Source: Bacteroidia bacterium
GTDB lineage: Bacteria > Bacteroidota > Bacteroidia > Palsa-965
Assembly (NCBI GenBank): GCA_023151315.1
Contig: JAKLJE010000012.1
Span: 27,584-91,583, forward strand
Direction of reading: 5' to 3'
Length of the DNA: 64,000 bases
Under the pieces are notes generated by a model. The model was given only the letters and a program-made list of their open reading frames with translations. It was not told the DNA's origin and made no database searches. Position numbers and translations under genes: made by a program. Shown in pieces: positions 1,150-51,846 of the stretch (position 1 is the first letter of the stretch; each line of letters opens with the position of its first letter).

Positions 1150-2784
<1,635 letters not shown>

Positions 2785-2804
2785 TCAAGTAGATTAATTA
2801 CAGA

Positions 2805-3083
2805 TTAAACAATAGCGAAAATGTCTGATTCTCTCATGATCAGGAAATCTTTACCGTCGATCTGAATTTCAGTTCCGGCATACTTGCCGTAAAGAACGGT
2901 ATCACCAACTTTCACAGTCATCGGTTCGTCTTTTTTACCTGCACCAACTGCAATCACAGTTCCACGCTGTGGTTTCTCTTTTGCGGTATCAGGAATGATA
3001 ATTCCTCCTGCTGTTTTTTCTTCCGCAGCTGCAGCCTGAATCACAACACGATCGGCGAGTGGGTTGATTTTTACTTTGCTCAT
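2805..3083 (-). CDS. groS: Co-chaperonin GroES, 92 aa.
   Basis: Sequence [47 protein letters not shown]. It lies immediately upstream of groEL. Confidence 0.95.
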
Positions 3084-3193
3084 TGCTGAATTGATTTAAT
3101 CGGTTAAACAAATTTAAGTTTCCAAATTCTTGGCGTTTCCTCTGATCAAATGGTTTGCCATCGGCTTAATCCCGCCATTTTTTCGCACTCAAA

Positions 3194-3235
3194 TAAAAAA
3201 TGTCAGGCTCATAAGACAACCTGACATTTTTTTTC
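3194..3235 (-). terminator. Intrinsic terminator of secG that also works in the other direction.
   Basis: ATGTCAGG (3200-3207) and CCTGACAT (3220-3227) form the stem. A6 precedes it and T8 follows. Confidence 0.6.
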
Positions 3236-3252
3236 GAAATGATAAGTGAAAA

Positions 3253-3606
3253 TTACTGTCCTGCTGGTGGGGTTGGAGCTCCACCGCCCGGCATTGCTTG
3301 TGGTCCCGGTGCAGCTGGCTGCTCGGTGCCCATTTCACTTGCTTTATCTTTTGTTGCAGATGAACTTCCTTCTGAACTTCCTGTGCCGTCTGACAAGCTG
3401 GTTGCAAGAATGCTGAGTACCAGAATCAGAATTGCCAGAAACCATGTTGCTTTCTCAAGGAAATCTGCTGTACGACGCACGCCCATAACCTGAGCGCCCG
3501 ACTGAAAGCCTGACGCAAGTCCGCCTCCTTTTGGATTCTGGATCAATACTGCTACAACAAGCAGTATGCACGAAAGGAAAATGATAATTGAAATTGCAGT
3601 AACCAT
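3253..3606 (-). CDS. secG: Preprotein translocase subunit SecG.
   Basis: Motif LIQNPKGGGL. Two TM segments and a Gly/Pro-rich C-tail. Confidence 0.85.
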   Translation of the reverse strand: MVTAISIIIFLSCILLVVAVLIQNPKGGGLASGFQSGAQVMGVRRTADFLEKATWFLAILILVLSILATSLSDGTGSSEGSSSATKDKASEMGTEQPAAPGPQAMPGGGAPTPPAGQ

Positions 3607-8360: not shown

Positions 8361-11006
8361 ATGGCAAAGAATTTAGTGATCGTAGAGTCGCCTGCAAAGG
8401 CAAAAACAATTGAGAATTTTCTCGGTAAAGACTTTACCGTGAAATCGAGTTTTGGTCATGTGCGGGACCTCGTTAAAAAAGGACTCGCTGTAGATACAGA
8501 AAAGGGATTCACTCCCAATTACGAAATCTCTCCGGATAAGGAGAAAGTGATTGCCGAACTGAAGAGATTGGCAAAGGACGCAGACATCGTCTGGCTCGCA
8601 ACGGATGAGGACCGCGAAGGAGAAGCCATTTCGTGGCACTTGTCGGAAGCGCTGAAACTTGACGACAAGAAAACACGTCGTATTGTGTTCCACGAGATCA
8701 CGAAACCGGCAATCATGAAAGCGATTGAATCGCCGAGAAAGATTGATCGTCACTTGGTAGATGCACAGCAGGCGAGACGTATTCTCGATCGTCTCGTTGG
8801 TTTTGAATTGTCTCCGATTTTATGGAAGAAAGTAAAACCATCTCTTTCTGCGGGTCGTGTACAGAGTGTAACCGTTCGTCTTATCGTTGAACGCGAGCGA
8901 GAAATTGCTGCATTCAAATCAACTTCTTCTTACAAAGTTTCAGCGGTTTTCATCAGCAACGGACAGAAGTTCAAAGCGGAATTGCGCTCTAATTTCAAAA
9001 CGATTGAAGAAGCACGCAAATTCCTGCATGTGTGTTCCAAGTCAACGTTCACAGTTTCTTCTCTCGAAACAAAACCATCACGTAAATCTCCTTCTGCACC
9101 GTTCACAACATCAACGTTACAGCAGGAAGCTTCTCGTAAACTTGGTTTTTCTCCGAAGAGAACAATGGTTGTGGCGCAGCGACTTTACGAAAGCGGTAAG
9201 ATCACATACATGCGAACTGACTCCGTGAACCTCTCTGAACTCGCTCTTGGTAAAGCCAAAGAAGTGGTAACTAAGAGTTACGGTGCAAAGTACGTTCACA
9301 CACGTCAGTATAAAACGAAAAACAAAGGCGCACAGGAAGCCCACGAAGCAATTCGTCCGACTTACCTCGAGCGCAATATGGTCGAAGGTGAACGTGACGA
9401 ACAACGCCTTTACGATCTGATCTGGAAGCGCACAATCGCTTCTCAAATGGCGGAAGCGGAACTCGAAAAAACAACTGCAGTTATTGCGGTGTCCGGTGCT
9501 TCAGAAACTTTCGTTGCGCAGGGAGAAGTAATCAAGTTCGACGGTTTCCTTGCTGTGTACATGGAGTCATCTGATGATGATAACGAAGATGACGACAGCG
9601 AGAACTCAGAAGCAATGCTTCCTCCTCTGAAAACAGGACAGGCATTGAATTCACACGCAATCACGGCAACACAACGTTTCACACATCATCCTCCGCGTTA
9701 TACAGAAGCTGCGTTGGTGAAAAAGCTTGAAGAGCTCGGAATCGGTCGACCTTCAACTTACGCTCCGACAATTTCTACAGTACAGGAACGCGGTTACGTT
9801 GTGAAGGAAGAACGTGAAGGAAAGCAAAGATCTTACGATGTTCTCACGCTCTCCAACGGAACAATCAATGAAGAAAAGCGCACGGAGAATACCGGCGCAG
9901 AAAAAAATAAATTGTTCCCGACGGATATCGGAACAGTTGTAACCGATTTTCTCAGTCAGTACTTCCCGAAAATCATGGACTACGGTTTCACGGCAAACGT
10001 GGAAGAAGAGTTTGATGAAATTGCCGAAGGAAAAATTGATTGGAGAAAAATGCTCGAGCAGTTCTACCGTCCGTTTCACAAAGACGTGGAGAAAACGGAA
10101 GAAACTTCTGAGCGAGCAAGCGGTGAACGTTTGCTCGGAAAAGATCCGCTTACGAAAAAGAACGTTTACGTTCGTATCGGTCGTTTCGGTCCATTGGTAC
10201 AGATCGGTGAAAGTGATGATCCGGAAAAGAAATTTGCAAGTCTGCGCAAAGACATGCGTCTCGAAACAGTGACTTTCGAAGATGCAATGGAATTGTTCAA
10301 ACTTCCTAAGACAGTTGGAAGTTATAAAGGCAAGGAACTCGTGATTGGAATCGGTCGTTTCGGTCCTTACGTGAAATGGGGCGATCAGTATGTTTCAATC
10401 CCACGCGGTGAGGATCCGATGAAAGTGGAAGAGGAGCGCGCTGTTGAGTTGGTGAAACAGAAAGAAGCTGCGGATGCTCCGATCGCGCAATACAAAGGAA
10501 CTCCGGTTACAAAAGGAAAAGGTCGTTTCGGACCGTTCATTAAGTTCGGTGATATATTCATCAACGTTCCGCGTGCATATGATTTCGATAATCTTTCGCA
10601 GAATGATATCGCAGAACTGATCGAAAAGAAACTCGAGAAGGAAGCGAATCGTTACATCAGGCAGTGGCCGGAAGAAAAAATTTCATTGGAGAACGGCCGT
10701 TGGGGTCCTTTCATTCGTTTCGGAAAAGCCATGTTGAAAATCACACGCAGTGATAAGCAGGAAAAACTTTCGCCGGAAGAAGTTGCTGAACTTTCACTCG
10801 AACAAGTGAAAGCCATGATCGAAGCTCAGGTTCCGGGTGCTTTTGACAAAAAAGGTTCTAAAGCTCCTGCGAAAAAGTCCAAAGCTCCGGCCAAAGCAAC
10901 GAAGGCTCCGGCGAAGAAAACAAAGGCGCCTGCAGTAAAAAAAGCTCCGGCAAAAAAAGCTCCGGCAAAGAAAGCAGCTAAGAAGGCGGCAAAAAAACGC
11001 AAGTAG
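8361..11006 (+). CDS. topA: DNA topoisomerase I (type IA) with a lysine/alanine-rich basic C-terminal tail.
   Basis: Toprim N-terminus MAKNLVIVESPAKAKTIENFLG. Several Zn-ribbon-like repeats of the form GRFGPY. Tail KAPAKKSKAPAKATKAPAKKTKAPAVKKAPAKKAPAKKAAKKAAKKRK. Confidence 0.93.
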   Translation: MAKNLVIVESPAKAKTIENFLGKDFTVKSSFGHVRDLVKKGLAVDTEKGFTPNYEISPDKEKVIAELKRLAKDADIVWLATDEDREGEAISWHLSEALKLDDKKTRRIVFHEITKPAIMKAIESPRKIDRHLVDAQQARRILDRLVGFELSPILWKKVKPSLSAGRVQSVTVRLIVEREREIAAFKSTSSYKVSAVFISNGQKFKAELRSNFKTIEEARKFLHVCSKSTFTVSSLETKPSRKSPSAPFTTSTLQQEASRKLGFSPKRTMVVAQRLYESGKITYMRTDSVNLSELALGKAKEVVTKSYGAKYVHTRQYKTKNKGAQEAHEAIRPTYLERNMVEGERDEQRLYDLIWKRTIASQMAEAELEKTTAVIAVSGASETFVAQGEVIKFDGFLAVYMESSDDDNEDDDSENSEAMLPPLKTGQALNSHAITATQRFTHHPPRYTEAALVKKLEELGIGRPSTYAPTISTVQERGYVVKEEREGKQRSYDVLTLSNGTINEEKRTENTGAEKNKLFPTDIGTVVTDFLSQYFPKIMDYGFTANVEEEFDEIAEGKIDWRKMLEQFYRPFHKDVEKTEETSERASGERLLGKDPLTKKNVYVRIGRFGPLVQIGESDDPEKKFASLRKDMRLETVTFEDAMELFKLPKTVGSYKGKELVIGIGRFGPYVKWGDQYVSIPRGEDPMKVEEERAVELVKQKEAADAPIAQYKGTPVTKGKGRFGPFIKFGDIFINVPRAYDFDNLSQNDIAELIEKKLEKEANRYIRQWPEEKISLENGRWGPFIRFGKAMLKITRSDKQEKLSPEEVAELSLEQVKAMIEAQVPGAFDKKGSKAPAKKSKAPAKATKAPAKKTKAPAVKKAPAKKAPAKKAAKKAAKKRK
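10850..10995 (+). repeat. Coding low-complexity AAAGCTCCGGC(A/G)AAG-type repeats encoding the KAPAKK tail of TopA.
   Basis: Repeated 'aaagctccggc' units are visible in the DNA. Confidence 0.6.
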
Positions 11007-11014
11007 TACTCAAG

Positions 11015-11052
11015 AAAGTCTCTCCAATCAACGGAGAGACTTTCTTGTTTTA
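11015..11052 (+). terminator. Intrinsic terminator of topA.
   Basis: AAAGTCTCTCC and GGAGAGACTTT form a perfect 11-bp stem with loop AATCAAC, followed by CTTGTTTT. Confidence 0.7.
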
Positions 11053-11129
11053 CAATACTCACATCTCGCTATTGACAACTTTTCCCGTCCACGCAAGCGC
11101 TATTGAATCGGTGTTGGTAATATTGGATC

Positions 11130-38346: not shown

Positions 38347-39207
38347 CTACTGACAAATCAGCGTATCATAGGTTGGCGCGTAACCGCAGAAAATACCAAG
38401 ACCGCCGGTTACATTATGCTCGATAACGCCTGGTGCTGCAAACGGATTGCCGTTGTTGCTGACCTCAATTTCATAAGTACGGAAAAAGTCAGCTTCTGCC
38501 TGGCCAATCGCACAGAACTTCACAACAACAACGTCGCCTGTGATGAAGTATCCTCTGCGGAAGTCGTTGTCTTCAGGCAAAGTTGAACCGGGTGCTGCCG
38601 GACGGTTGTAAGCAAAATCGAAACTCTTGCCTTCAATGAAATTATCGTCGAACGTAGAGCCGAACGGAGCAAGAAATGCATCATCTTCTCCAATGCGTTT
38701 TGTGAACCAACGATAACCGTTACCCATACCAACAGGTTCCGTCATATGTGCCCATACGAATCCTAAACTGTCGCCAGGGATTTCCGGTTTGAACCATACA
38801 CTGTCCAGCGGAACAGGTTGAGGAATTGTTGTGGTTGCAGTTGCGCTGTGATCAGTGGTGCTGACATTCAATGTGTAGGTTCTTCCTGCTTGACCAATAA
38901 TATTGCTGCCACGATACACAAACGGAATAGGTCGTGAGAAGTCCACTGTAAGGTTAAGTGTGTCCGTTGTGATTCCGTCAGTAACTGTTACTGTTGCGTT
39001 CGTTATAACGTAGTTCGCAATGGAAGCAGAATCGATAGGATCGAAGTAACCCGCACTCCAGGTCAATGTTACTTCTGCAGGCTCACCTGTTGTAATACCA
39101 CCGTCAACAACGATGAGTTGTTCCGGTTGCGGAAGATCAACGGAAATTTCCTTTTCACATGAAAAGAGTGCAAAGCTCAGAACGAAAAATGCGATTGTTT
39201 TTTTCAT
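38347..39207 (-). CDS. DUF4249-family lipoprotein (TonB-receptor-associated).
   Basis: Lipobox MKKTIAFFVLSFALFSC. Adjacent to a TonB-dependent receptor as is typical for this family. Confidence 0.55.
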   Translation of the reverse strand: MKKTIAFFVLSFALFSCEKEISVDLPQPEQLIVVDGGITTGEPAEVTLTWSAGYFDPIDSASIANYVITNATVTVTDGITTDTLNLTVDFSRPIPFVYRGSNIIGQAGRTYTLNVSTTDHSATATTTIPQPVPLDSVWFKPEIPGDSLGFVWAHMTEPVGMGNGYRWFTKRIGEDDAFLAPFGSTFDDNFIEGKSFDFAYNRPAAPGSTLPEDNDFRRGYFITGDVVVVKFCAIGQAEADFFRTYEIEVSNNGNPFAAPGVIEHNVTGGLGIFCGYAPTYDTLICQ

Positions 39208-39212
39208 GATTC

Positions 39213-41594
39213 TCAGAATGAAAAGTTCCACGTTACAGAAGGAAGAATAGGGAAGAGCGAAACCTGCTTCGCGGTTACGCGGAGATTTCCTTCCTGAATG
39301 CTTCCTTCGTTATCGAAATAAATGAAATACGGATTCATGCGGTTGTAGATGTTGTACACCGAGAAGTTCCAACTGCTGCTGTAAGGTACACGGCGGAAAA
39401 GTTTTTTCGGTTTGCATGTATATGTTACCGAAATATCCGCACGGTGATAAGCCGGCATACGGAAACTGTTTCTGTCACCGTATTCCGGAACAATCTGTCC
39501 TTCGATGATGTAACGTGATTCCGGCAAAGTGATCGCGTTACCAGTTCCGTAAACAAATACAAAACTGAATGTCCAGCGTTCATTCAACTCGTAAACATTT
39601 ACAAAGCTCACATCATGACGACGGTCGTAGCGTGCATAAAAAACTCTTCCGTCTTCAATGTCCGGGAATGATCTTGTAGTCCATGATAAAGTATAACCGA
39701 TCCAGCCTGTGTACTGACCTTTTCTCTTCTTGAAGAAAAATTCCGCGCCGTATGATTCGCCGGTTCCGAAAACGAAATTATTATCAGTGTTGTTGTTTAC
39801 ATTGTCTTCTGGCAATGCACCAGGTGTGAATTCAACCTGGTTGAGCATTTTCTTGTAGTAGATTTCCACTGACGATTCGTACTGATTGTCGAAGAGATTC
39901 TTGAAGTAACCCAATGCATATTGCGTTCCGATCTGCGGTTTAACAACATCTGAACATGGAACCCAGATGTCTGTAGGAAGCGAAATAGGGGACAACGTGG
40001 CCAGATGCACATATTGGTAATTGTGTGTATAAGCTGCTTTGATAGATGAGGTTTTGTCAATCTGGAAGCGCACTGTAAGTCGCGGTTCTATTCCGTAATA
40101 GTCCTGAACTTTATCAAACTTTCCGTAGGAGACCGTGTCAACAGTCCGGCCGGTTACATCTTTCACGTAACGATCGAATGGACCAACCTGCATGAAGTAA
40201 GAAAAACGCATTCCACCTGAAACTCTCCAGCGTTCACTGATGTCCCAATCATCGTTGATGTAAACACCGGCTTCATGTGCGTATTGCTTTACGAGTCCGC
40301 CAAGGTCAAATACAGTTTCACCTGATTTCGCAGAGACGTTGTTCGGGGTGAAAATATGCCATGTGTACGCACTGCCGAAACGGATGTTGTGTTTCGTGTT
40401 TGGCTGATAATAGAAATCGGTTTTCACATTGAAATCTCGGATGCCTGAAAACAGTTTAAACTCGAAACCATCCTGCTCTGCAGCAAACTCAAATTGATAA
40501 TCGCTGAACACCGCTGTTGTATTCATAAACAGCTTCGGACCGAAAAGATGGTTCCATCGTATAGAAGTGGTCGCATTTCCCCAAGGAATACTCACATTGA
40601 AATCCGCTTCCGAATTTTTGTAAGTAAACACATCTCGTCCGAAATATCCGCTGGCAAAAACACGGTTACGGTCATTGATCCTCCAGTTTACTTTAGCGTT
40701 CATGTCGTAGAAGTAGTATCCGCTGCCGTTGAAGCGCGATGTTTCCTTAATGAACGGTTTCATTAAAATATCGATATAAGTTCTTCTGGCTGACACAATG
40801 AAAGAGGCTGTATCCTTCTTGATCGGACCTTGTACCGTGAGTCGAGAAGCAATTACTCCGATTCCTCCATCTGCCTGAAAGCGTTGATCATTTCCTTCTT
40901 TCATGGTGATATCCAAAACGGATGAAAGTCTTCCTCCGTACTGTGCAGGCATACCTCCTTTGATCAGATTGATATCTTTCACAGCGTCACCGTTGAACAC
41001 AGAGAAAAATCCGAATAAGTGTCCCGCATTGTATACGGTTGCTTCATCCAGCAGAATCAGATTCTGATCCGGTCCGCCTCCTCGTACATAAAATCCGGAA
41101 TTTCCCTCCGCTCCGCCTTTCACACCCGGAAGAAGCTGAATTGTTTTTAATACATCCACTTCACCCATGAATGCAGGAATTACCTTCACCTGCTTCATGT
41201 CCAGTTTCATCTTTCCCATCTGAGGATCCTGCACGTTACCATCAGCTTTATCTGAGGTAATTAATACAGTCTGCATTTGTTTCGATTTCAATCTGATCTC
41301 GAAAAATGTATCTTTCTGCAGCTTGATGTGTGTATTGAAAGGTTCAAGACCGATATACGAAACCGTCATGTCATATTCTCCTGCTTCAGCAGTAAGAGAG
41401 AAAAATCCGTAAACATTGGTTGCTGTTCCTTTGATAGGATCTTTAATCATCACCGATGCACCAATGAGTGCTTCACCGTTTGATTCATCACGGACATATC
41501 CGCTGATGGTGAATTTTTGCGTTTGCGCTTCTGCATTAAGTCTGAGGAAAAACATCATCAGAAACAGAATGAAACGGGAGTGCTGCTTTAACAT
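39213..41594 (-). CDS. TonB-dependent receptor with an N-terminal carboxypeptidase-regulatory-like domain.
   Basis: Signal peptide, CarbopepD_reg-like FTISGYVRDESNGEALIGASV, a plug domain, a roughly 600-aa barrel and C-terminal Phe. Confidence 0.85.
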   Translation of the reverse strand: MLKQHSRFILFLMMFFLRLNAEAQTQKFTISGYVRDESNGEALIGASVMIKDPIKGTATNVYGFFSLTAEAGEYDMTVSYIGLEPFNTHIKLQKDTFFEIRLKSKQMQTVLITSDKADGNVQDPQMGKMKLDMKQVKVIPAFMGEVDVLKTIQLLPGVKGGAEGNSGFYVRGGGPDQNLILLDEATVYNAGHLFGFFSVFNGDAVKDINLIKGGMPAQYGGRLSSVLDITMKEGNDQRFQADGGIGVIASRLTVQGPIKKDTASFIVSARRTYIDILMKPFIKETSRFNGSGYYFYDMNAKVNWRINDRNRVFASGYFGRDVFTYKNSEADFNVSIPWGNATTSIRWNHLFGPKLFMNTTAVFSDYQFEFAAEQDGFEFKLFSGIRDFNVKTDFYYQPNTKHNIRFGSAYTWHIFTPNNVSAKSGETVFDLGGLVKQYAHEAGVYINDDWDISERWRVSGGMRFSYFMQVGPFDRYVKDVTGRTVDTVSYGKFDKVQDYYGIEPRLTVRFQIDKTSSIKAAYTHNYQYVHLATLSPISLPTDIWVPCSDVVKPQIGTQYALGYFKNLFDNQYESSVEIYYKKMLNQVEFTPGALPEDNVNNNTDNNFVFGTGESYGAEFFFKKRKGQYTGWIGYTLSWTTRSFPDIEDGRVFYARYDRRHDVSFVNVYELNERWTFSFVFVYGTGNAITLPESRYIIEGQIVPEYGDRNSFRMPAYHRADISVTYTCKPKKLFRRVPYSSSWNFSVYNIYNRMNPYFIYFDNEGSIQEGNLRVTAKQVSLFPILPSVTWNFSF

Positions 41595-41737
41595 CTTGAG
41601 TTGGAGTGCTGCTGGGTGGCAAAATTAGTCATATTGCTTTGCGGGTTTATCCGTATTTGCCCGTTTCTTGATGGTAATTGAAGCTTTTTTAACAAACGCG
41701 ACGGTATTCTGCTAATGTTATCTATCCATAGACGTGC

Positions 41738-41781
41738 GTCTGGTCTGAAAGTTACTTGCCATCTGAAAAGTCTGGTCTGAA
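41738..41781. promoter_or_regulatory. Direct repeat GTCTGGTCTGAA twice, 32 bp apart, in a divergent intergenic region.
   Basis: Copies at 41738-41749 and 41770-41781. TCTGAAA occurs three times. Confidence 0.35.
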
Positions 41782-41873
41782 TTTTCCACTTTGTCGACCG
41801 GTGCTCATTATGTCACGACGAGTTAAGTGCATTTTGCATTCCCATTAAATTTTTGTAAAGTTGTTAAGGCAAT

Positions 41874-42263
41874 ATGAAATCACTTTTACCATCACTTTTT
41901 ATCGGCATTTCTTCACTGTTTCTCATCTCGTGTGAGGAAGCGCAGAAAGTTCCTGTCGTGTCAGCAGATCCCGTTCCTCAAACTATCCAGCCCGAAGCCT
42001 ATTCAGCTTCTGCTTTTGAGGTTGTGGACAGTACCGGGAAATTTCTCGGATTCGGTTATGACATTTACAATGGTTCAAAGAAAATGATTCATCAATCCAC
42101 TATTCCGGGAGAACCTGGTGTCAATGGATTCGTAAGCGCTGAAGAGGCAGAACGTGTTGCCAAACTGGTAATTCATAAGCTGGAAAGTAATGCGGGGTTT
42201 CCGACAATTAACAGGGCGGAGCTGGACAGTTTGAAAATAACATTGCAAACAATTACTCAATGA
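41874..42263 (+). CDS. Small hypothetical lipoprotein.
   Basis: Lipobox SSLFLISC. Stop overlaps the start of the first Kelch-like gene. Confidence 0.5.
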   Translation: MKSLLPSLFIGISSLFLISCEEAQKVPVVSADPVPQTIQPEAYSASAFEVVDSTGKFLGFGYDIYNGSKKMIHQSTIPGEPGVNGFVSAEEAERVAKLVIHKLESNAGFPTINRAELDSLKITLQTITQ

Positions 42264-43450
42264 AGAACATTATTACGCTAACCTTATTGTGCATTGTGTT
42301 GGTTGCGGAGGCGCAAACACAATACGGTTGGGTGCAGAAAGCGTCCATCCCGGCAACAGGCAGACATAGATCTACAGCATTGTCTTGCGGCAATCGTGGT
42401 TATGTTGGATTGGGACACATCAATTCCATTGTAGATGTGTTATTCGATGACTGGTGGGAATATGATCCCGGTTCTGATACCTGGTCGCAGAAGGCAAACT
42501 TTGCAGGTGGGTTGCGCTATCATGCAGCAGGATTTACAATAGGAAATGAAATATTCGTTGGAACCGGACGCGCACCAAGTTCTGTTTTGATGAATGATTT
42601 TTACAAATACAGTCCTGCAACAAACACATGGACACCTGTGGCAAGTTTTCCCGGAACAGCACGTCGCGGTGCAGTGTCGTTTGAAATAAATGGCGCCGGT
42701 TATGTAGGTACCGGATCGTACTATGGTGATTGGTACAAATACAATCCTGTTACCAACAGTTGGAGCGGAATTGCATCAGGACCGCCCGCTCGTATTTCAG
42801 GTGTGGGAATGTCGGTGAACGGAAAAGGTTATTGTGGTACGGGTGATGTTGGCGGAAATACAGGAGACTGGTGGGAATACAATCCTGTAACCAATCAATG
42901 GACACAGAAAGCAACATTGACCGGACTTCCGAGAATGGAAGCATGTGGTTTTGCATATGATGGAAAATGTTTTGTGGGCACGGGTGATGATTATTCCAGC
43001 GGAACAAACTATCAGGATTTCTGGTGCTGGAATCCGGTAACGAATGCATGGACACAGGTTACTGATTTCGGTGGTGCTGCGCGCCGTTATCTTGTTGCAT
43101 TAACTATCGGACAGCGCGTCTATGCCGGTACAGGAACCAGCGGAATGAATTACAATGATTGGTGGGAATATGGTTCTATCTCCTCGATTGATGAGCAGCA
43201 GGTGAATGCAGAAGTAGTTGCATTTCCTTCTCCGGCAGTAGAGTCGGTTACGTTGCGATCCGATGTTTTTCCATTGCAGAACATGACTTGTGTTCTCTAT
43301 GACGTGAACGGAAAAGCAGTTCGAATTGAGAATTTCTCCAATGAAGCAATGCCTGTCATTCAGCGCAATGATTTGCCGGCAGGTGTTTACACATTCGTGT
43401 GTACGGCGAATTCTCAATTTGTTTCAACCGGTAAATTTATTTTCCAATGA
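42260..43450 (+). CDS. Kelch/galactose-oxidase-like beta-propeller protein with a T9SS C-terminal sorting domain, paralog 1.
   Basis: Repeats of roughly 45 aa DWWEY(D/N)P.TN.WT.KA.F.G..R (seven to eight copies). C-terminal roughly 80-aa T9SS tail (AFPSPAVESVTL...GVYTFVCTANSQFVSTGKFIFQ). Confidence 0.75.
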   Translation: MKNIITLTLLCIVLVAEAQTQYGWVQKASIPATGRHRSTALSCGNRGYVGLGHINSIVDVLFDDWWEYDPGSDTWSQKANFAGGLRYHAAGFTIGNEIFVGTGRAPSSVLMNDFYKYSPATNTWTPVASFPGTARRGAVSFEINGAGYVGTGSYYGDWYKYNPVTNSWSGIASGPPARISGVGMSVNGKGYCGTGDVGGNTGDWWEYNPVTNQWTQKATLTGLPRMEACGFAYDGKCFVGTGDDYSSGTNYQDFWCWNPVTNAWTQVTDFGGAARRYLVALTIGQRVYAGTGTSGMNYNDWWEYGSISSIDEQQVNAEVVAFPSPAVESVTLRSDVFPLQNMTCVLYDVNGKAVRIENFSNEAMPVIQRNDLPAGVYTFVCTANSQFVSTGKFIFQ

Positions 43451-44658
43451 GAACGCTGCTGTTCATTATTGCGACATTGATTGTAACGAACATTGGTGCG
43501 CAGAATTCGTGGGAGAAGAAAGAAGCGTTCGGCAGCGACAAACGTTCGCGAGGAATAGCATTCGCTATCGGTAATCGCGGTTACTATGGGATGGGTGAGG
43601 ATACTGCCGATATGGTGCGCAATGACTTGTGGGAATATGACCCGGGAACAGATTCTTGGATGCAGAGAGCAACGCTTCCTGCACCGGGAAGAAGAGATGC
43701 CGTTGGTTTTGCGATTGGAAACAAAGGTTATGTAGGTACCGGAATTGATGCTGCTGAATCTTTGTTTGGAAATAACCTTAACGATTGGTGGGAATATAAT
43801 CCTGCAACAAACACTTGGACTCAGAAAGCAACTTATCCTGGAAGTTCTTCATGGGGAGGTATTTATTTCGGTTGCGGATTCACCGTGAACGGGATGGGTT
43901 ATATTGTTGGAGGCAAGCAGGGCAACTCTCAATATGTTGCCGGATTATGGCAGTACAATCCAGCAACTAATTCATGGTTGCAAAGAGCAACTTTCCCCGG
44001 AGGAACGCGCTACGCGATGAGTGCATTCACGATTAATGGTAAAGCTTATGCCGGCTGCGGTACAGATGAAAATATTCTTCAGAACGACTGGTGGCAATAC
44101 GATCCGGTAACGAATATCTGGACCCAGAAGAATAATTTTCCGGGAACAGGCAGATTCGCTGCCGCAGGATTTGCAATCGGACAATACGGTTATCTGTTGG
44201 GTGGATCAGACGGCGGTTACAAAGATGAATTATGGCAATATGATTACACGTCGGATTCCTGGTATCCGAAAGCACCTTATGGTGGCGGAGAACGTCGTTC
44301 GTTGGGTGTATTCGTAATTGCAAACGCGGCTTACGGATGTTGCGGAAGCGGTTTCTCGGGTAAACGCCGCGACGTGTGGCAATACGAACAGTTCCTCACT
44401 GACATCGAGACACGTGACGTGCATACAATTTCAGTTTACCCTAATCCTGCGTCTGATCGCATTACAATCGCAGGTGGTAATACTTCAGCTAGATATTCGG
44501 TTGAGATAATATCAGCGTTTGGAGAAATTGTAAGCATTGAAAATTACAATGGTGTGCAAAACGCAACCATTGATATCGCTGATCTCACTCCCGGATATTA
44601 CATCATCCGCATGACGTCAAACGGCGTTGCAACCAACAGCTCATTCGTAAAACACTGA
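43447..44658 (+). CDS. Kelch-like T9SS-CTD protein, paralog 2.
   Basis: Same repeat architecture. C-terminal tail ISVYPNPASDRITI...GYYIIRMTSNGVATNSSFVKH. ATGA overlap with paralog 1. Confidence 0.75.
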   Translation: MRTLLFIIATLIVTNIGAQNSWEKKEAFGSDKRSRGIAFAIGNRGYYGMGEDTADMVRNDLWEYDPGTDSWMQRATLPAPGRRDAVGFAIGNKGYVGTGIDAAESLFGNNLNDWWEYNPATNTWTQKATYPGSSSWGGIYFGCGFTVNGMGYIVGGKQGNSQYVAGLWQYNPATNSWLQRATFPGGTRYAMSAFTINGKAYAGCGTDENILQNDWWQYDPVTNIWTQKNNFPGTGRFAAAGFAIGQYGYLLGGSDGGYKDELWQYDYTSDSWYPKAPYGGGERRSLGVFVIANAAYGCCGSGFSGKRRDVWQYEQFLTDIETRDVHTISVYPNPASDRITIAGGNTSARYSVEIISAFGEIVSIENYNGVQNATIDIADLTPGYYIIRMTSNGVATNSSFVKH

Positions 44659-44667
44659 TTCATCATT

Positions 44668-45885
44668 ATGAGAAAATATATATTTCTATCCGCCTGTTCG
44701 CTGTTGTTCACCGCGTTCTCTGCAAAAGCCTGGATACAGCGCGATACGATAGGTGGAGGTGCAAGATCTTCTGCGTGCAGTTTCAGCATTGGCAGTGCTG
44801 CCTTCGTCGCTACTGGACTTGATAGCAATTCATTCAAGCGGAGCATGTGGATGTACAATCCGGCTACAGACATCTGGACACAAATGACCAGTCTGGGAAA
44901 TTCCACAGGACAAGGTCTGGAGCGTAACGTGGCAATGAGTTTTTCTATCGGGAATAAAGGTTATGTCGTTGGCGGACAAGGTTCCAACCCTTATTTCAGT
45001 GATACGTGGGAATGGGATTTTGCAACTGACACCTGGTCGCAGAAACAGACTTTTACGGGCGGCGGTCGTCGCGCCGGAGTGGGATTTGCTATCAATGGAA
45101 AAGGATATGTTGGATTGGGGCAATCTTCAACAGGTTTGCGTAACGACATGTGGGAGTACAATCCAACTACCAATCAGTGGACCGCAAAAGCGAATTTCCC
45201 GGGAACAGCAAGAAGATTTCCCGCATGCTTTATCATTGCGAATGTCGCGTACATCGGAACAGGAGATGACGGAGCATTCAAGTCGGATATGTTTGCATTC
45301 GATCCTGCTTCCAATTCATGGACTGCCAAAGCTTCTTTTACAGGAACACCGCGTTATTCAACCGTGAGTTTTTCACTCTTCGGTAAAGGTTATATCGGAC
45401 TCGGTTACGACAATACGTTGCAGAATACCGATGATATATGGGAATACGATCCTGTTGGCAACAACTGGATTTTCAAAGACAATTTCCCGGGATCAAAACG
45501 TGCCAATGCAAGTGCCGTTACAACATCAAACAACAAATGTTACATCGGTTTGGGATATGATTCACTGCTGCGTGATGACTGGTGGGAGTTTGATCCGCTC
45601 GTTGACGGAATCAATGACAACAACGGCCTTGCTTCGCGTGTTGAAGTTTATCCGAACCCTGCTCAGGAATTTGTTACGATCAGTATACCATCAACCGCTG
45701 TTCCGTTCAATTCAGATTATGCAATCCGTATTTATGATGCTGCAGGAAGAACCGTGTACTGCAGTAATGCATTCGGCACCGGCCCGGTGAACGTCAGTCT
45801 GGCAAACTTCAGCAGCGGCTCATATCAGATTGTTCTGGAGAACGAACATTTCGGTCGTGTTACCAAACCTCTGATTGTTCAGTAA
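44668..45885 (+). CDS. Kelch-like T9SS-CTD protein, paralog 3.
   Basis: Same architecture. C-terminal tail VEVYPNPAQEFVTI...SYQIVLENEHFGRVTKPLIVQ. Confidence 0.75.
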   Translation: MRKYIFLSACSLLFTAFSAKAWIQRDTIGGGARSSACSFSIGSAAFVATGLDSNSFKRSMWMYNPATDIWTQMTSLGNSTGQGLERNVAMSFSIGNKGYVVGGQGSNPYFSDTWEWDFATDTWSQKQTFTGGGRRAGVGFAINGKGYVGLGQSSTGLRNDMWEYNPTTNQWTAKANFPGTARRFPACFIIANVAYIGTGDDGAFKSDMFAFDPASNSWTAKASFTGTPRYSTVSFSLFGKGYIGLGYDNTLQNTDDIWEYDPVGNNWIFKDNFPGSKRANASAVTTSNNKCYIGLGYDSLLRDDWWEFDPLVDGINDNNGLASRVEVYPNPAQEFVTISIPSTAVPFNSDYAIRIYDAAGRTVYCSNAFGTGPVNVSLANFSSGSYQIVLENEHFGRVTKPLIVQ

Positions 45886-46118
45886 TGGAACAGATTGTTC
45901 GCGGACGTTACCTTCATTATAAAGGCAACGAATACGAAGTATTAGGAACCGCCCGTCACAGCGAAACCGAAGAAGTTTTTGTTTTGTATCGCCCGCTGTA
46001 TAACACGAAAGAAAAAGGTGAACACCAATATTGGATTCGTCCAATAGCGATGTTCACCGAAAATGTTTTGGTTGAAGGTAAATTACAACCTCGATTCGCT
46101 TTAATTGAAGCGTACTAG
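45885..46118 (+). CDS. DUF1653-family small protein.
   Basis: 77 aa, RYLHYKGNEYEVLG...YRPLY pattern. TAATG overlap with Kelch paralog 3. Confidence 0.55.
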   Translation: MEQIVRGRYLHYKGNEYEVLGTARHSETEEVFVLYRPLYNTKEKGEHQYWIRPIAMFTENVLVEGKLQPRFALIEAY

Positions 46119-46577
46119 TTACGCACGTCCGCCTTCAGTATTTACAGGAGGAGCCGGATCCCAGCAGCCTTGATATTTGAATGAAAGTTTGGAATAGTAG
46201 TCGGTGCTGTAAAACGCAACGCGATCCAGCGATGCATCAATTTCGCTTTGATCAATATTCGCAGTTTCACGCAATGTCAAAACATAAATCCATCCGTCTT
46301 TCTTACACATCCATGATCCGTACATCTGATAGTTGATTTCGAGAAGATCCTGGTAGAATTCTGCCGTTTTACGAGCAGGCAGAGCGCAGAGCGGACTCAT
46401 TACCTGAAAATACCATTTACCTTGATTGGCGTCTGAACTGAAGACATCGATCCAAACATTCGCGTCTTTCAATTTGTATGACCATTGTCCGGGTTTCTGA
46501 CCTCTGCACAATGCAGGATCCACTTTCAAACCGGCAAGACTGTTTTCGATGAGCGGTGTGATTTCCTGAAGATTCAT
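46119..46577 (-). CDS. YbjN-domain protein (putative sensory-transduction regulator or chaperone-like).
   Basis: About 150 aa starting MNLQEITPLIE. YbjN-like alpha/beta pattern. Confidence 0.5.
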   Translation of the reverse strand: MNLQEITPLIENSLAGLKVDPALCRGQKPGQWSYKLKDANVWIDVFSSDANQGKWYFQVMSPLCALPARKTAEFYQDLLEINYQMYGSWMCKKDGWIYVLTLRETANIDQSEIDASLDRVAFYSTDYYSKLSFKYQGCWDPAPPVNTEGGRA

Positions 46578-46767
46578 AATGATTTGTTGTTTAGGGTTTG
46601 TGATTGTTTCAAATGTGAAGTTAGAAGACAAATTACCAATCACAAGCGGAGAAAGCGATTTTATTTTGTGCATTGACAAAGATCATTTGCGACAAACGTC
46701 AATTCTTTGCGGGTAAACACAGCATGTTTTAACACGGGTTGTGACTTCAGGCGATTATCTTTGCCCG

Positions 46768-49638
46768 ATGATCACCGCGAAACGGTTTATTCTTGCGACA
46801 CTGTTGCTTCTTGCGGCTTCTTGCGGTTTGAACGCGCAGGTAACTGTAAGCGGACAGCTTGTTAGTACGCGAGACACTACAGCACTCTACGGGGCCGTGA
46901 TTGTGATGCGGAGTTTCCCGGATTCCACATTGATCGGAACAACAGCTGATACTGCCGGCAAGTTTGAACTGAGCAACGTTAAAGACGGTCGTTACCGTAT
47001 GACGATTCGATATTCCAGTTTTCTACCGGTTGTTAAGATGATTCGTGTGGAAGGAAAAGCAATTGATCTCGGAGTGATTCCAATGTATCCGGATTCCTCT
47101 TATCTGAAGACAGTTGTTATAGGCAGTACAATGATTCGTGTTGTACAGAAGAACGATACAACGGAAATGAACGCAGCGGCATTTAAAACAAATCCAGATG
47201 CAACTGCAGAAGATCTTGTGGGTAAAATGCCCGGTATTCAAGTGCAGAACGGCGAAGTAAAAGCTCAGGGTGAAACTGTGCAGAAAGTACTCGTTGATGG
47301 CAAAGAGTATTTCGGCGATGATGCGTCTTCGGTATTGCGGAATATGCCTGCCGATATGGTTGATAAAGTCCAGATTTTCGATCAGCGCAGCGACATGGCA
47401 ATATTTACAGGCGTTGATGACGGGAACACGAAAAAAACACTGAACATCATTACTAAGAATCAATATTCCAATGCAACATTCGGAAAAGTGTACGCAGGTT
47501 ACGGTACCGATAATCGTTATCAGGCAGGTTTCGTGCTGAACGATTTCAGAAAGGATCAGAAAATCACGCTGCTTGGAAATTTCAATAACATCAATCAGGT
47601 CAATTTTTCCATGCAGGACATGAGCGGAATATCAGGGAATAATTCCGGCGGCTCACGCGGAGGAGGAATGATGGGCAGAGGCGGAATGGGCCGTGGAGGC
47701 GATAACAGTTTCATGGTTGGACAACAGAAGGGAATAACTCAAGTGAGTTCATTCGGTATGAATTATGCCAATAAGTGGGGAACGAAGACACAGTTGTCCG
47801 GAAGTTATTTCTTCAACGCAACAGACAATACCAATCAGTCGTTGACTGCGCGTACGTTTTATGCGCCTGCATCAGGAACATTCTATTATCAGGATAATTC
47901 AACTTCTTCGTACAACCTCGGACATCGTGCCAATTTGCGCCTCGAATACAATCCGGATTCAGTGAACAGTTTCACATTTGCACCTCGTTACAGTTATCAG
48001 TATACGGACTATCGTAATCTGATTTCCGGAGCCAATTACACAACGGAAGATACGTTGAACTCAACTTCTACTGATAACGCGTCATTGAACACATCCAACA
48101 GCATCAGCGGAAATCTCAGTTACAGACATCGCTTTAAGAAAGCGGGACGCACTTTCTCGGCTGAAGTCAGCGGCAGTTTTCTCAGCAGAGACGGAAGCGG
48201 AGATTTGTTTTCTCTGAACAAATGGTTTTCAGGCGGTGATTCAAGTGTAGTTGTTGATCAGAACTCCGATTTGAATTCCGTAAGCTGGAGTGTTGCACCG
48301 ACCCTTACCTGGACTGAAAAAGCCGGTAAAGCAGGAATATTGTCATTCAGTTACAGTCCGTCCTACTCATTGAATGCATCAACGAAGATGGCACTCAGCT
48401 TTGATTCAACCTACAGTGATTACATTCTCGTTGATACTACAGTCAGCAATGATTACGACAACTATGTTGTGGTGAACAAAGCCGGAGTGAATTACAGAAC
48501 AGGCGGTAAGGGAAATATGTTCTCTTTCGGATTGGATGCGCAGCGCACTGACTTAATCGGTTATCGGTATTTTCCTTCCGAGGTAAATACAGAAGAACAG
48601 TTTTATAATCTGCTCCCGAGTTTTACCGCACACATTAAAAAAGGGAAGAAGATTTCCGCACGTATCAATTACCGTACTTCAGCAAATGCTCCTTCACTAT
48701 CCCAATTGCAGAACGTAATTGATAACTCGAATCCGCTTTCATTGTCTGCAGGTAATCCGTTTCTTAAACAGAGTTATTCGCACACTTTGTTCTCACGCTA
48801 TTCGTATAACAATACTGATAAAGCACGAAATCTTTTCCTCTTTGTAACTGCAACGTTGACGAACAATTACATTGGTTCATCATTACTTCTTGCGGGTGCG
48901 GATACTGTTCTCGGCAACGGTGTGGTACTTGGAAAAGGAGCACAGTACTCGCAGCCGGAAAATCTCTCGGGTTACTACTCAGCCAGTACATTTGGTGCAT
49001 ACAGTTTTCCATTGCTGAAACTTAAATCGAATTTCAGTTTTAACTGGATGTACAGTTTGCTCTCTTCGCCGGGATTAATCAACGGAGTAAAGAATATTGC
49101 CTTGAGCAATACTGTTGGTGGCGGATTTACTTTAAGCTCCAATATCAGTCAGCGAATAGATTTTTCTGCAGGATGGAATGCTAACTATGTGGTTGTGGCG
49201 AATTCAGTGAATGAATCTTCCGACAACAGTTACTATTATCATACTCCGAACGCACGACTTAATCTTCTTCTTGGAAAAGGATTTGTATTGAGCAGCGATG
49301 TAAACTTTACAAGTTATCGTGGATTAGGAGATGGCTTCAATCAGGATTTTCTGTTGTGGAATGCCTCATTCGGATACAAGTTTGCAAAGAATCGTCAGTG
49401 TGAATTCCGTATTACAGCGTTTGATATCCTCAAACAGAATCAGAGTTTATCGCGTACTATCGGAGAAACTTACATTGAAGACCAGCGCACGCAAGTATTG
49501 CAGCAATATCTGATGTTTACGTTCACCTGGAACTTCAAAAAGTTCAGAGGTGGCGGCGAGCCTACCGAAAATCAGACTCCTGCGGAAGGTCCTCGTCCGC
49601 AATTTCCTCCGGGACCACCTCCCGGACACATGCATTAA
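46768..49638 (+). CDS. Large outer-membrane beta-barrel / TonB-dependent-receptor-like protein with a CarbopepD_reg domain.
   Basis: Signal peptide MITAKRFILATLLLLAASCGLNAQ. Plug-like region. Internal Gly/Arg-rich segment GGSRGGGMMGRGGMGRGG. The barrel ends FTWNF and is followed by a Pro-rich tail. Confidence 0.7.
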   Translation: MITAKRFILATLLLLAASCGLNAQVTVSGQLVSTRDTTALYGAVIVMRSFPDSTLIGTTADTAGKFELSNVKDGRYRMTIRYSSFLPVVKMIRVEGKAIDLGVIPMYPDSSYLKTVVIGSTMIRVVQKNDTTEMNAAAFKTNPDATAEDLVGKMPGIQVQNGEVKAQGETVQKVLVDGKEYFGDDASSVLRNMPADMVDKVQIFDQRSDMAIFTGVDDGNTKKTLNIITKNQYSNATFGKVYAGYGTDNRYQAGFVLNDFRKDQKITLLGNFNNINQVNFSMQDMSGISGNNSGGSRGGGMMGRGGMGRGGDNSFMVGQQKGITQVSSFGMNYANKWGTKTQLSGSYFFNATDNTNQSLTARTFYAPASGTFYYQDNSTSSYNLGHRANLRLEYNPDSVNSFTFAPRYSYQYTDYRNLISGANYTTEDTLNSTSTDNASLNTSNSISGNLSYRHRFKKAGRTFSAEVSGSFLSRDGSGDLFSLNKWFSGGDSSVVVDQNSDLNSVSWSVAPTLTWTEKAGKAGILSFSYSPSYSLNASTKMALSFDSTYSDYILVDTTVSNDYDNYVVVNKAGVNYRTGGKGNMFSFGLDAQRTDLIGYRYFPSEVNTEEQFYNLLPSFTAHIKKGKKISARINYRTSANAPSLSQLQNVIDNSNPLSLSAGNPFLKQSYSHTLFSRYSYNNTDKARNLFLFVTATLTNNYIGSSLLLAGADTVLGNGVVLGKGAQYSQPENLSGYYSASTFGAYSFPLLKLKSNFSFNWMYSLLSSPGLINGVKNIALSNTVGGGFTLSSNISQRIDFSAGWNANYVVVANSVNESSDNSYYYHTPNARLNLLLGKGFVLSSDVNFTSYRGLGDGFNQDFLLWNASFGYKFAKNRQCEFRITAFDILKQNQSLSRTIGETYIEDQRTQVLQQYLMFTFTWNFKKFRGGGEPTENQTPAEGPRPQFPPGPPPGHMH

Positions 49639-51846
49639 TTATTTAAGAGCCTGTGCTGCGGCGAGATTGTTTTTCGCCAATTCCCATTCAGGATTCAATT
49701 CAACAGCCTTCGTGCCTGCATCAATAGCGCATTGCTTGTCTTTAAGTTGCGTACACGCTGCACAGATATTGTTGTAACCTGCTGCGCTTTTCGGATCGAT
49801 CTTTACTGCCTCCTGTGCTGCATCTCGGCTCGCTGCATAATTTCCTACGTTGTAATAACCTAAACTCAGGTTGAGCCATGTGTCATGTGTAGGTGTTGCA
49901 TCTACTGCAGCCTTCAGCGACTCAATCTGCGCTTTCTGACGCTGCGCTTCCGCAAGGTTATTGCGACTCATTTCATCGGTTGGTAACAATTGCACGGCTT
50001 TTTGTCCGGCTTCAATTGCTTTGTCAAATTGTCCGAGTTTATTGTAAGCTGCGCAAATATTATTGTACGCCAATCCGTAATCGGATTTCATCTCTGCAGC
50101 TTTTTCCGCTGCCAATGCGCTCTCCATATATTGACCATCAAGATAATATTGCAGAGAGAGATTAACGTAGTTTTCCGGAGTAGGTTTTTCCGTAGCCGCC
50201 TTCTTGGCTAAGTCCAACGCGGAAACAAAATTCGGAGTGTCGTAGAATGCCAGGTAATTGTTGATTCCCTGATGTCCCGGTGATTTCTCATGTCCTGTTC
50301 TCAGGAAAGGGATTGCTTCTTTTTCGCGATGTGTGCGAATCAGGAAATCTGCGTAATAATAGTAAGGCTCCGGATTTCCGGGATCAACAGCCAGAGCTTC
50401 CTTATAATAACGCTCCGCTTCCGCATTCATATTCTTTCTGGAAAGCGCAACTCCCATGTTGATTTTCGCATAAGCGTAGCCCGGAGCGAGATCAAGTGCT
50501 TTCTGGAATACAATAATTGCGCTGTCAACATTTCCACGTGCCATCAAAGCGTTACCGTAGTTCATCCAGCCACGTCCGTTTTCAGGACTCTTAATGGTTA
50601 CATCTTTCCAAAGAGATTCACCGCTGCCCCAAACTTCACAACGTTCTCTTGTTCCGATCATATGAGCAGTCAGAAGGAATCCCGTAAATCCGAGAGCAAC
50701 CATTTTGTGCAAGCTGAATCCGGATTCTGTATTAATGCGTCTCCAGCCAATCACAGCGAAATTCGCAACTACCAGAATCAATCCGATATAAGGGAAAAAG
50801 ACACGGTGATCGTTCATCACTTCCGCAAACGAGAATATACTGCTTGTAGGTGCAAGTGCTATGAAGAACCACGCAATGCCGAATGCCGCTGCCTTTGTTT
50901 CTTCTTTGAATGACCAGCGTATACCTGCAACAATCAGTGTTCCCAGAATAAATGCCCCTGCAAAAACACGCGTATCAAACAGATTGGAGAAATATGCCCA
51001 ATCTGTATCAGCGCTCAGATTAACAGGAAGTATGAACGTGTACAGATAATGGACGATCACGAACGATTGCGTGAACAAGTAATGTAAAGGGTCTGCTCCT
51101 CCGCTGGTCCAGGTTGACAGTGTCATTTTTCTCGAAATCAGAAATAACACGGCAGCAAGTATGAATGAGACAATTATTCCCGGGGATACAAGATTGCGAT
51201 TGGATTCATTTCGTACAAAGAGCAAGTGGTATACGAGCAACATTGGAGCGAACATGATGGCTGTTTCTTTAATCAGGAATCCATAAGCTATCGGTAACAG
51301 ATAGATGTAATATTTTCTTCCTTTTTCCCAATAGAAATACAGGTTGAAGGCCAGAATGATAAATAACGTGGATTGTGAATCAGATCGTGCCGAGATATAA
51401 TTAATGGTTTCCGCATTGGCGGTATGCAGCATATAAAACCCGGTTGAGAGAAGAGCAATCCAATTTGTCCACTCAATGGAAGGGAAGCATTTTTTCAGCA
51501 AGTGCAGAATGAAAAAATAGAGCAGCACTCCAAGTATCAGATACAGAATAAAGATGTGAATGTGAAACACTACCGGATCAGGTGTGCCATCAGATAAAAT
51601 AGTGTCAATACTATTGGTAATTGTCATCCCGGGTCGCCAAGCCTGATTGGCAGGAAGTGTGCTGAACGCTGTCGGATCAGTCAGAAATCTTCCGATATCA
51701 AGAGTGTCGAGAGAACTGTTTTTGACAATAGTGTGGTCATCGTCAAAGTGAAAAGGATTGTCGAAATGATTCTGGTAGGCTAGAAACACCATGAGGAGCA
51801 GTGCCAGGGCCACGCCGAAGAATGGAATAGAGTAGGGTTTTTTCAT
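49639..51846 (-). CDS. Polytopic membrane protein with C-terminal TPR repeats (PMT/TMTC-like, possible GT39-type glycosyltransferase).
   Basis: N-terminal roughly 400-aa multi-TM domain with FHFDDDHTIV, followed by at least eight TPR motifs. Confidence 0.5.
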   Translation of the reverse strand: MKKPYSIPFFGVALALLLMVFLAYQNHFDNPFHFDDDHTIVKNSSLDTLDIGRFLTDPTAFSTLPANQAWRPGMTITNSIDTILSDGTPDPVVFHIHIFILYLILGVLLYFFILHLLKKCFPSIEWTNWIALLSTGFYMLHTANAETINYISARSDSQSTLFIILAFNLYFYWEKGRKYYIYLLPIAYGFLIKETAIMFAPMLLVYHLLFVRNESNRNLVSPGIIVSFILAAVLFLISRKMTLSTWTSGGADPLHYLFTQSFVIVHYLYTFILPVNLSADTDWAYFSNLFDTRVFAGAFILGTLIVAGIRWSFKEETKAAAFGIAWFFIALAPTSSIFSFAEVMNDHRVFFPYIGLILVVANFAVIGWRRINTESGFSLHKMVALGFTGFLLTAHMIGTRERCEVWGSGESLWKDVTIKSPENGRGWMNYGNALMARGNVDSAIIVFQKALDLAPGYAYAKINMGVALSRKNMNAEAERYYKEALAVDPGNPEPYYYYADFLIRTHREKEAIPFLRTGHEKSPGHQGINNYLAFYDTPNFVSALDLAKKAATEKPTPENYVNLSLQYYLDGQYMESALAAEKAAEMKSDYGLAYNNICAAYNKLGQFDKAIEAGQKAVQLLPTDEMSRNNLAEAQRQKAQIESLKAAVDATPTHDTWLNLSLGYYNVGNYAASRDAAQEAVKIDPKSAAGYNNICAACTQLKDKQCAIDAGTKAVELNPEWELAKNNLAAAQALK

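Follow-up and report, generated by a model that had tools for sequence, protein, structure and literature searches.

What holds three tandem genes for predicted secreted Kelch propellers together, and which of their neighbours belong with them, is the question raised by a locus in the genome of a Bacteroidia bacterium (contig JAKLJE010000012.1), analysed here within a stretch of 64,000 nt (hereafter the window, whose numbering is used throughout). On the plus strand, the gene of a 129-aa lipoprotein of the DUF4907 family (41874-42263) is followed by three Kelch genes, designated in order K1 (42260-43450, 396 aa), K2 (43447-44658, 403 aa) and K3 (44668-45885, 405 aa), and by a DUF1653 gene (45885-46118, 77 aa) that faces a convergent open reading frame (ORF; 46119-46577, or to 46679). 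An initial annotation of this region had described the lipoprotein, Kelch and DUF1653 genes as a single run joined by start/stop overlaps, and had proposed that the Kelch genes had diversified in tandem as surface lectins or adhesins. The ORFs and their coordinates were confirmed, as were the overlaps at the lipoprotein/K1 (ATGA), K1/K2 (ATGA) and K3/DUF1653 (TAATG) junctions, but between K2 and K3 there are 9 nt and no overlap. Overlaps of 4 nt are a sign of translational coupling within a DUF4907-K1-K2-K3 operon. This four-gene operon is the actual unit, a local variant of an old DUF4907-Kelch module that is widespread in Bacteroidota. Judged from gene neighbourhoods, the pairing itself is the strongest conserved feature of the locus, and DUF4907 is the true conserved partner of the predicted exported Kelch propellers.

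The extent of this pairing was assessed from both sides. A family-alignment scan, with one genome per species, provided 80 loci, all from Bacteroidota-type metagenome-assembled genomes, in which ORFs were called and searched with the window proteins. In these loci, which were found through their Kelch genes, DUF4907 was detected in 49 of 80, every time beside Kelch ORFs, and loci with a single Kelch gene were devoid of it. The reverse search started from DUF4907: a degenerate nucleotide pattern encoding its core, GYDIY-x6-xHQ-x3-P, was run against metagenome contigs. With 118 of the 121 analysed loci (the 120 loci of the scan and locus L088) verified as DUF4907, and 78 DUF4907 genes being informative because they had enough flanking DNA, a same-strand Kelch ORF was found to adjoin 67 of these 78 genes (86%), downstream in 43 and upstream in 26. 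The tight coupling of the Kelch genes to the lipoprotein gene upstream, as described initially, is supported. In three loci (L053, L077 and L079), the DUF4907 gene is directly followed by a giant ORF with five to eight Kelch propellers, as would be anticipated for components with a joint function. The Kelch partners of DUF4907 that have no T9SS (type IX secretion system) C-terminal sorting domain (CTD) carry other modules of cell-surface proteins instead (Big_2, List_Bact_rpt, Mfa-like fimbrillin or TIG), the TIG-Kelch combination being found in Mucilaginibacter calamicampi. Since DUF4907 also occurs beside these Kelch proteins without a T9SS tail, it may recognise the propeller itself rather than the secretion pathway.

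The giant ORFs adjoining DUF4907, 1400 to >3700 aa in length, are located at 4125-15336 in L053, 3981-13061 in L077, 6789-11108 in L079 and 569-11569 in L154. Locus L126 contains, on the minus strand (2280-3500), a 406-aa ORF composed of a signal peptide, DUF4907, one Kelch blade, a segment rich in Cys and Thr, and a T9SS CTD; this DUF4907-Kelch-CTD fusion was seen only once and may be what is left of a rearrangement.

The assignment of the first gene of the operon to DUF4907 is unambiguous (PF16250, 58.3 bits for a cut-off of 25; E = 6.5e-16). Its product begins with MKSLLPSLFIGISSLFLIS-C, a signal peptide ending in the lipobox LFLIS-C, and nearly all DUF4907 homologs have a hydrophobic N-terminus that is often followed by a Cys. 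DUF4907 can thus be regarded as a probable small exported protein, and as a predicted lipoprotein in the window. The homologs were also searched for an acidic surface-export signal after the Cys, and no clear enrichment was detected. In the AlphaFold2 model, a linker of about 22 aa following the lipobox is predicted with low confidence, and residues 43-119 (ca. 77 aa) form a domain with three strands, one long and one short helix, for which the predicted local distance difference test (pLDDT) exceeds 90. The nearest fold is that of the small beta3-alpha domains of UPF0339/YegP (DUF1508), and comparison with PDB sequences gave only chance-level matches (E >= 0.2). The family alignment displays a conserved core, GYDIY...HQ...P, and invariant residues at G61, Y62, D63, H73, Q74, P78, F86, A92, K102, P110 and E116. 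A full profile search collected 3155 DUF4907 representatives at 50% clustering, of which the best 150 were all stand-alone proteins of 99-177 aa.

The Kelch array itself is broadly distributed. Arrays of Kelch-CTD genes of about 400 aa were identified in 39 of the 80 genome loci, with three genes in 30 of them and four in nine. They occur in Flavobacteriales, Crocinitomicaceae, Fluviicola, Chitinophagales, Aureispira and unclassified Bacteroidia. When the 129 array proteins were clustered by average linkage (k = 3), the clusters followed gene position almost without exception. K3-type sequences occupied the end of the arrays, K2-type sequences the place before it, and K1-type sequences the one or two leading places; 39 of 40 proteins at the final position, and again 39 of 40 at the one before it, fell into the corresponding cluster. 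Mean identity reached 38-45% within position groups and 27-30% between them. This agreement between cluster and position, together with the higher identity within groups, shows that the triplication is older than the divergence of these lineages. The event predates the split of several Bacteroidota orders, and K1, K2 and K3 are three distinct, anciently separated ortholog groups co-inherited in a fixed order. The family to which K2 belongs is very large, with 2886 matches among the 8000 candidates scored.

Around this conserved framework, the position of the DUF4907 gene varies. It comes first in the window clade and last in Flavobacteriales and Crocinitomicaceae, where it often overlaps K3. 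In more than 30 loci of these two groups, the recurrent flanking genes are unrelated housekeeping genes, and the operon is therefore self-contained. The Flavobacteriales/Crocinitomicaceae operon was also seen to be headed by a gene whose product, about 378 aa long, combines a GEVED domain with a T9SS CTD, giving a five-gene unit GEVED-K-K-K-DUF4907; this arrangement was observed in L020 (5704-6843) and 31 other loci, such as L036 and L010 (3883-5604). A GEVED-CTD gene was sought in the window and is absent there, the CTDs alone giving matches.

With regard to the proteins, K1, K2 and K3 are true paralogs that match each other well above chance level in BLASTP analyses, with E-values of 5e-64, 7e-60 and 9e-50 at 30-33% identity (30-35% in a MAFFT alignment), and they share the WxYxPxxNxW repeat motif, so that both the tandem paralogy and the common repeat described initially are supported. 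Several Kelch models match each of them, including Kelch_1 (54-73 bits, cut-off 20.1) and PF24681 (67.7, 86.1 and 98.1 bits for K1, K2 and K3, respectively; cut-off 50). The propellers extend approximately over nt 42317-43183 (K1), 43504-44394 (K2) and 44731-45606 (K3). The initial annotation had counted seven to eight repeats per protein. Complete WxYxPxxxxW motifs number five in K1, five in K2 and, by a strict pattern, four in K3, with the sixth blade split between the two ends of the domain, its 'DWWEY' strand being C-terminal and its 'W.QK' strand N-terminal. An AlphaFold2 model of K2, built with 23 homologs (pLDDT 87.8), has six four-stranded blades between residues 20 and 315, blade 6 being closed by strand 20-25, and a beta-sandwich at residues 329-402. 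K1, K2 and K3 are each a canonical six-bladed Kelch propeller, and the Kelch-like beta-propeller fold proposed initially is confirmed with a lower number of blades. Galactose oxidase and glyoxal oxidase, seven-bladed proteins with a copper and Tyr-Cys site, therefore do not correspond in blade number.

Structural comparison of one paralog had been recommended in the initial annotation, and a Foldseek search of the PDB with the K2 model returned as best matches the six-bladed Kelch domains of KLHL17, KEAP1, NS1-BP and LZTR1, as well as the designed SAKe6 proteins, with target-length-normalised TM-scores of 0.80-0.89 at 17-28% identity. A profile search of PDB sequences likewise placed the SAKe6 designs, KLHL20 and KEAP1 closest. 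The eukaryotic BTB-Kelch proteins (KLHL17, KLHL20, KEAP1 and NS1-BP) and LZTR1 share with the window proteins their six four-stranded blades and the closure by an N-terminal strand (E = 1e-18 to 1e-20 with Foldseek, 1e-23 to 1e-25 in the PDB profile search). The Kelch domains of these eukaryotic proteins bind peptides or proteins through their loop face. In contrast, the window proteins are bacterial and predicted to be Sec-exported, carry a T9SS sorting domain and have no BTB or BACK domains. In the sequence search of the PDB, the computationally designed, symmetric SAKe6 Kelch proteins (E down to 1e-34) outranked every natural protein, which places this bacterial family near the idealised Kelch consensus.

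Several features suggest that the three proteins are exported. Their hydrophobic N-termini are followed by plausible signal-peptidase sites (...AEA, ...GAQ and ...AKA for K1, K2 and K3, respectively), as read from the translations and not by a predictor. At their other end, the T9SS type-A sorting domain model TIGR04183 scores above its cut-off of 23 in all three (28.9, 38.3 and 32.8 bits), in line with the distinct type-A sorting domain initially attributed to each protein. The Por_Secre_tail model PF18962 (cut-off 27) is passed by K2 (48.5 bits) and K3 (40.0 bits), with K1 just below (25.0 bits). These CTDs cover approximately nt 43184-43447 in K1, 44407-44655 in K2 and 45607-45882 in K3. 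K1-K3 are accordingly predicted to carry Sec signal peptides and type-A T9SS sorting domains. They resemble known type-A cargo (TIGR04183/PF18962), such as RgpB and HBP35 of Porphyromonas gingivalis, in starting with a signal peptide and ending in a beta-sandwich of some 80 aa, a structure documented for T9SS CTDs (PMC11285876). The CTD of the K2 model is a seven-strand sandwich. The difference from RgpB- and HBP35-type cargo lies in the payload, a Kelch propeller, and in a cargo status that is here read from sequence. A general combination of propeller and CTD is also known from PorZ, a surface component of the T9SS that has two beta-propellers and a CTD and acts at the surface in a complex. 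The PorZ propellers are seven-bladed and are not known to be of the Kelch type; the likeness is one of overall architecture and serves only as a lead; no sequence or fold match to PorZ was found among the top matches of the PDB sequence search or of Foldseek.

The age of the array raises the question of how its members have evolved since. The initial annotation had suggested a dN/dS (nonsynonymous to synonymous substitution rate) map across the three copies, a measure that is not meaningful between paralogs at 30-35% identity; the window was compared instead with the orthologous operon of a close relative, L086, using the Nei-Gojobori method. The propellers of K1, K2 and K3 are 93-96% identical to their L086 orthologs, with dN/dS values of 0.014-0.022 (0.022 for the K1 propeller), which are approximate since dS lies at 1.3-1.8, near saturation, for whole genes and propellers. 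The corresponding figures are 73% and 0.09 for DUF4907, and 83%, 67% and 38% for the CTDs of K1, K2 and K3, respectively, with dN/dS values of 0.10-0.22. From these substitution patterns, the propellers are under strong purifying selection, contrary to the surface variation proposed initially. The tail of K3 (45607-45882) was observed to change fast, its CTD being 38% identical to that of the L086 ortholog and its propeller 93%.

As to the downstream side of the locus, the product of 45885-46118 clearly belongs to DUF1653 (PF07866, 89.7 bits for a cut-off of 23.5). For the convergent ORF, the YbjN-like label given initially holds only in part: the match to YbjN (PF10722) covers nearly the whole profile (positions 7-124 of 126) but scores 14.5 bits, below the cut-off of 22 (E = 0.042), so that a remote kinship is possible. 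Neither gene was found in any of the 80 genome loci with homologous Kelch genes. In L086/L087, where the neighbourhood is syntenic with the window, a gene encoding a 549-aa protein with a Peptidase_S8 domain and a CTD (12030-13679 in L086) separates K3 from DUF1653, which overlaps the S8 gene there (ATGA). In L006, an S8 gene also lies directly after K3 (10497-11059), the contig ending inside it. The S8 gene is cleanly absent from the window at 45883-45887; given its presence after K3 in L086/L087 and L006, the window has lost it, and it is this absence that brings DUF1653 next to K3. A recombination between CTDs that deleted the S8 gene and left K3 with the tail of the S8 protein was considered and rejected, as the window K3 CTD matches the K3 CTD of L086 (39%, E = 3e-21) and is 19% identical to the S8 CTD.

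A metagenome contig of a relative, L100 (330-1639), offers a complementary view: Kelch genes are missing, and DUF4907 is followed 177 nt later by DUF1653 and then by the convergent ORF. The entire Kelch block has either been lost from L100 or been gained by the other loci. DUF1653 and the convergent ORF thus form a stable backbone pair that persists whether or not Kelch genes are present. From their distribution, the two genes are local backbone neighbours and not partners, and the linkage of DUF1653 to Kelch genes put forward in the initial annotation is not conserved. In the window, the stops of the DUF1653 gene (TAG) and of the convergent ORF are separated by 0 nt (46116-46121), which implies that the two transcripts overlap or share no terminator.

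What the conserved unit may do is a matter of graded likelihood. We put at about even the chances that the propellers are T9SS-exported and act jointly as surface binding modules, with DUF4907 as a dedicated accessory. Under this proposal, the three propellers would cross the outer membrane through the T9SS, as predicted from their tails, and would function as a non-redundant group on the cell surface or close to it, with physical association being probable. They would serve as binding modules for a conserved ligand, which may be a glycan or a protein, and not as enzymes. DUF4907 could be tethered to the membrane as their partner or anchor, or it could encounter the propellers in the periplasm, ahead of export, and help to assemble or hold them. 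In favour of physical association are the invariant order of the genes, their 4-nt overlaps, the fusion of several propellers in single proteins and the fact that the paralog types are not redundant. A more specific version, which we hold to be rather doubtful, is that DUF4907 and a fixed set of three or four propellers (in some lineages fused into giant proteins of 5-8 propellers) form an undescribed T9SS-exported hetero-oligomeric surface assembly, with DUF4907 as its obligatory anchor or assembly subunit and with a single conserved ligand or task. Such an assembly, for instance a receptor or an attachment platform, would be distinct from a mere collection of adhesins. Several points weigh against the joint binding role. 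Five Kelch arrays have no detected DUF4907, and 11 of the 78 informative DUF4907 genes (14%) have unrelated neighbours and no Kelch gene beside them. The dN/dS values are approximate, as stated above. The association of K1, K2, K3 and DUF4907 is suggested by gene order, coupling and fusions, and a binding rather than enzymatic function by sub-threshold scores against NanM and by protein-binding fold neighbours; a catalytic site that escapes recognition in the propellers is possible.

This last point leads to the alternative of secreted enzymes, in which the propellers would be NanM/YjhT-type mutarotases of sialic acid or other sugars, or another Kelch-fold enzyme, with paralogs differing in substrate. 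NanM/YjhT (COG3055; PRK14131, TIGR03547) is also a bacterial, exported, six-bladed Kelch propeller, and the very strong purifying selection would suit an enzyme equally well. Many homologs are named 'N-acetylneuraminic acid mutarotase' by the Joint Genome Institute, a name that is an automatic COG label. The NANM profile PF24996 gives weak partial matches to K1, K2 and K3 (43.3, 47.5 and 40.5 bits, respectively, around a cut-off of 45) that span only about one third of the profile. Weak matches also occur to TIGR03548, PRK14131 (60.9, 50.1 and 53.3 bits) and TIGR03547 (51.3, 42.3 and 47.8 bits), which for the last two are far from the cut-offs of 416 and 256. No NanM structure was present among the top 50 Foldseek or the top 60 sequence matches, all of which were protein-binding Kelch domains. 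NanM/YjhT further differs in that it lacks a T9SS tail, is not encoded as a set of tandem paralogs and is not accompanied by DUF4907; sialic-acid genes are absent from the vicinity of the window locus, sugar-catabolic genes are not recurrent in the flanks of the other loci, and the Flavobacteriales flanks are of the housekeeping type. Taken with these differences, an enzymatic role appears unlikely.

The genes upstream of the operon suggest another possibility, in which the propellers would be the capture arm of a TonB-dependent uptake system, binding a nutrient and passing it to a divergent receptor/DUF4249 pair. In the window, this pair, a TonB-dependent receptor with a CarboxypepD_reg domain and a DUF4249 gene, occupies 38347-41594 on the minus strand. 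The receptor gene is head-to-head with the operon in the window, L001, L006, L007 and L086, and it is followed by DUF4249 in L001, L006 and L086. Two distant loci, L050 and L077, also have a receptor homologue close to the module; of these, only L050 gave a DUF4249 match. Yet the receptor is present in just 4 of the 80 genome loci and in 0 of 120 metagenome loci, it is not the receptor pair that flanks the operon in the more than 30 Flavobacteriales and Crocinitomicaceae loci mentioned above, and its linkage within the window clade may be simple synteny. This uptake role is therefore judged very unlikely. Still less credit, amounting to an extremely low probability, can be given to the original view of a recent tandem duplication and diversification that yielded variable surface lectins or adhesins, with DUF1653 and the YbjN-like gene as companions. 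Tandem paralogs with T9SS tails do fit such a model, the TAATG overlap of K3 and DUF1653 suggests co-transcription in the window genome, and the adhesin-type modules on DUF4907 partners elsewhere make a binding role plausible. However, the paralogs are just 30-35% identical, the three types are collinear orthologs across orders, in 39 loci other than the window, and the propellers have remained nearly unchanged between relatives whose synonymous sites are saturated (dN/dS ~0.02). The supposed companions are missing from all 80 loci, are separated from K3 by the S8 gene in L086/L087 (this gene also following K3 in L006), and exist without Kelch genes in L100.

Each part of the locus falls into a family already catalogued (Kelch, T9SS type-A cargo, DUF4907 and DUF1653), and the locus is a typical representative of a large family that is annotated automatically and whose homologs are routinely named 'kelch repeat-containing' or 'T9SS type A sorting domain-containing'. 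In the library searched, there was no paper on 'DUF4907' and a single incidental proteomics mention of 'DUF1653', and a search for Kelch cargo of the T9SS (type IX secretion, Por_Secre_tail) gave nothing relevant. What the analysis adds is a firm genomic partner for DUF4907, in the form of predicted exported Kelch propellers, and a three-paralog array that is old, co-inherited and strongly constrained across several Bacteroidota orders. The notions of fast-varying adhesins and of DUF1653 involvement can be set aside, and the DUF4907-Kelch association provides a testable start for the function of both DUF4907 and a widespread group of T9SS cargo.

Regarding the other features of the window, the 279-nt intergenic region (41595-41873) from which the DUF4907 and TonB-dependent receptor genes diverge is the presumed promoter region of the operon. 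A scan of 41500-46900 for sigma-70 promoters and terminators gave counts equal to those of shuffled sequences, the sigma-70 consensus not covering Bacteroidota promoters. Beyond the convergent ORF, a gene at 46741-49638 encodes a 965-aa outer-membrane beta-barrel protein (OMP_b-brl_3 and CarboxypepD_reg), and a 735-aa ORF on the minus strand (49639-51846) has numerous hydrophobic segments towards its N-terminus and a C-terminal half resembling TPR repeats. In the 965-aa barrel protein, a low-complexity insert is rich in Gly, Met and Arg (GGSRGGGMMGRGGMGRGG), and the C-terminal tail is rich in Pro.

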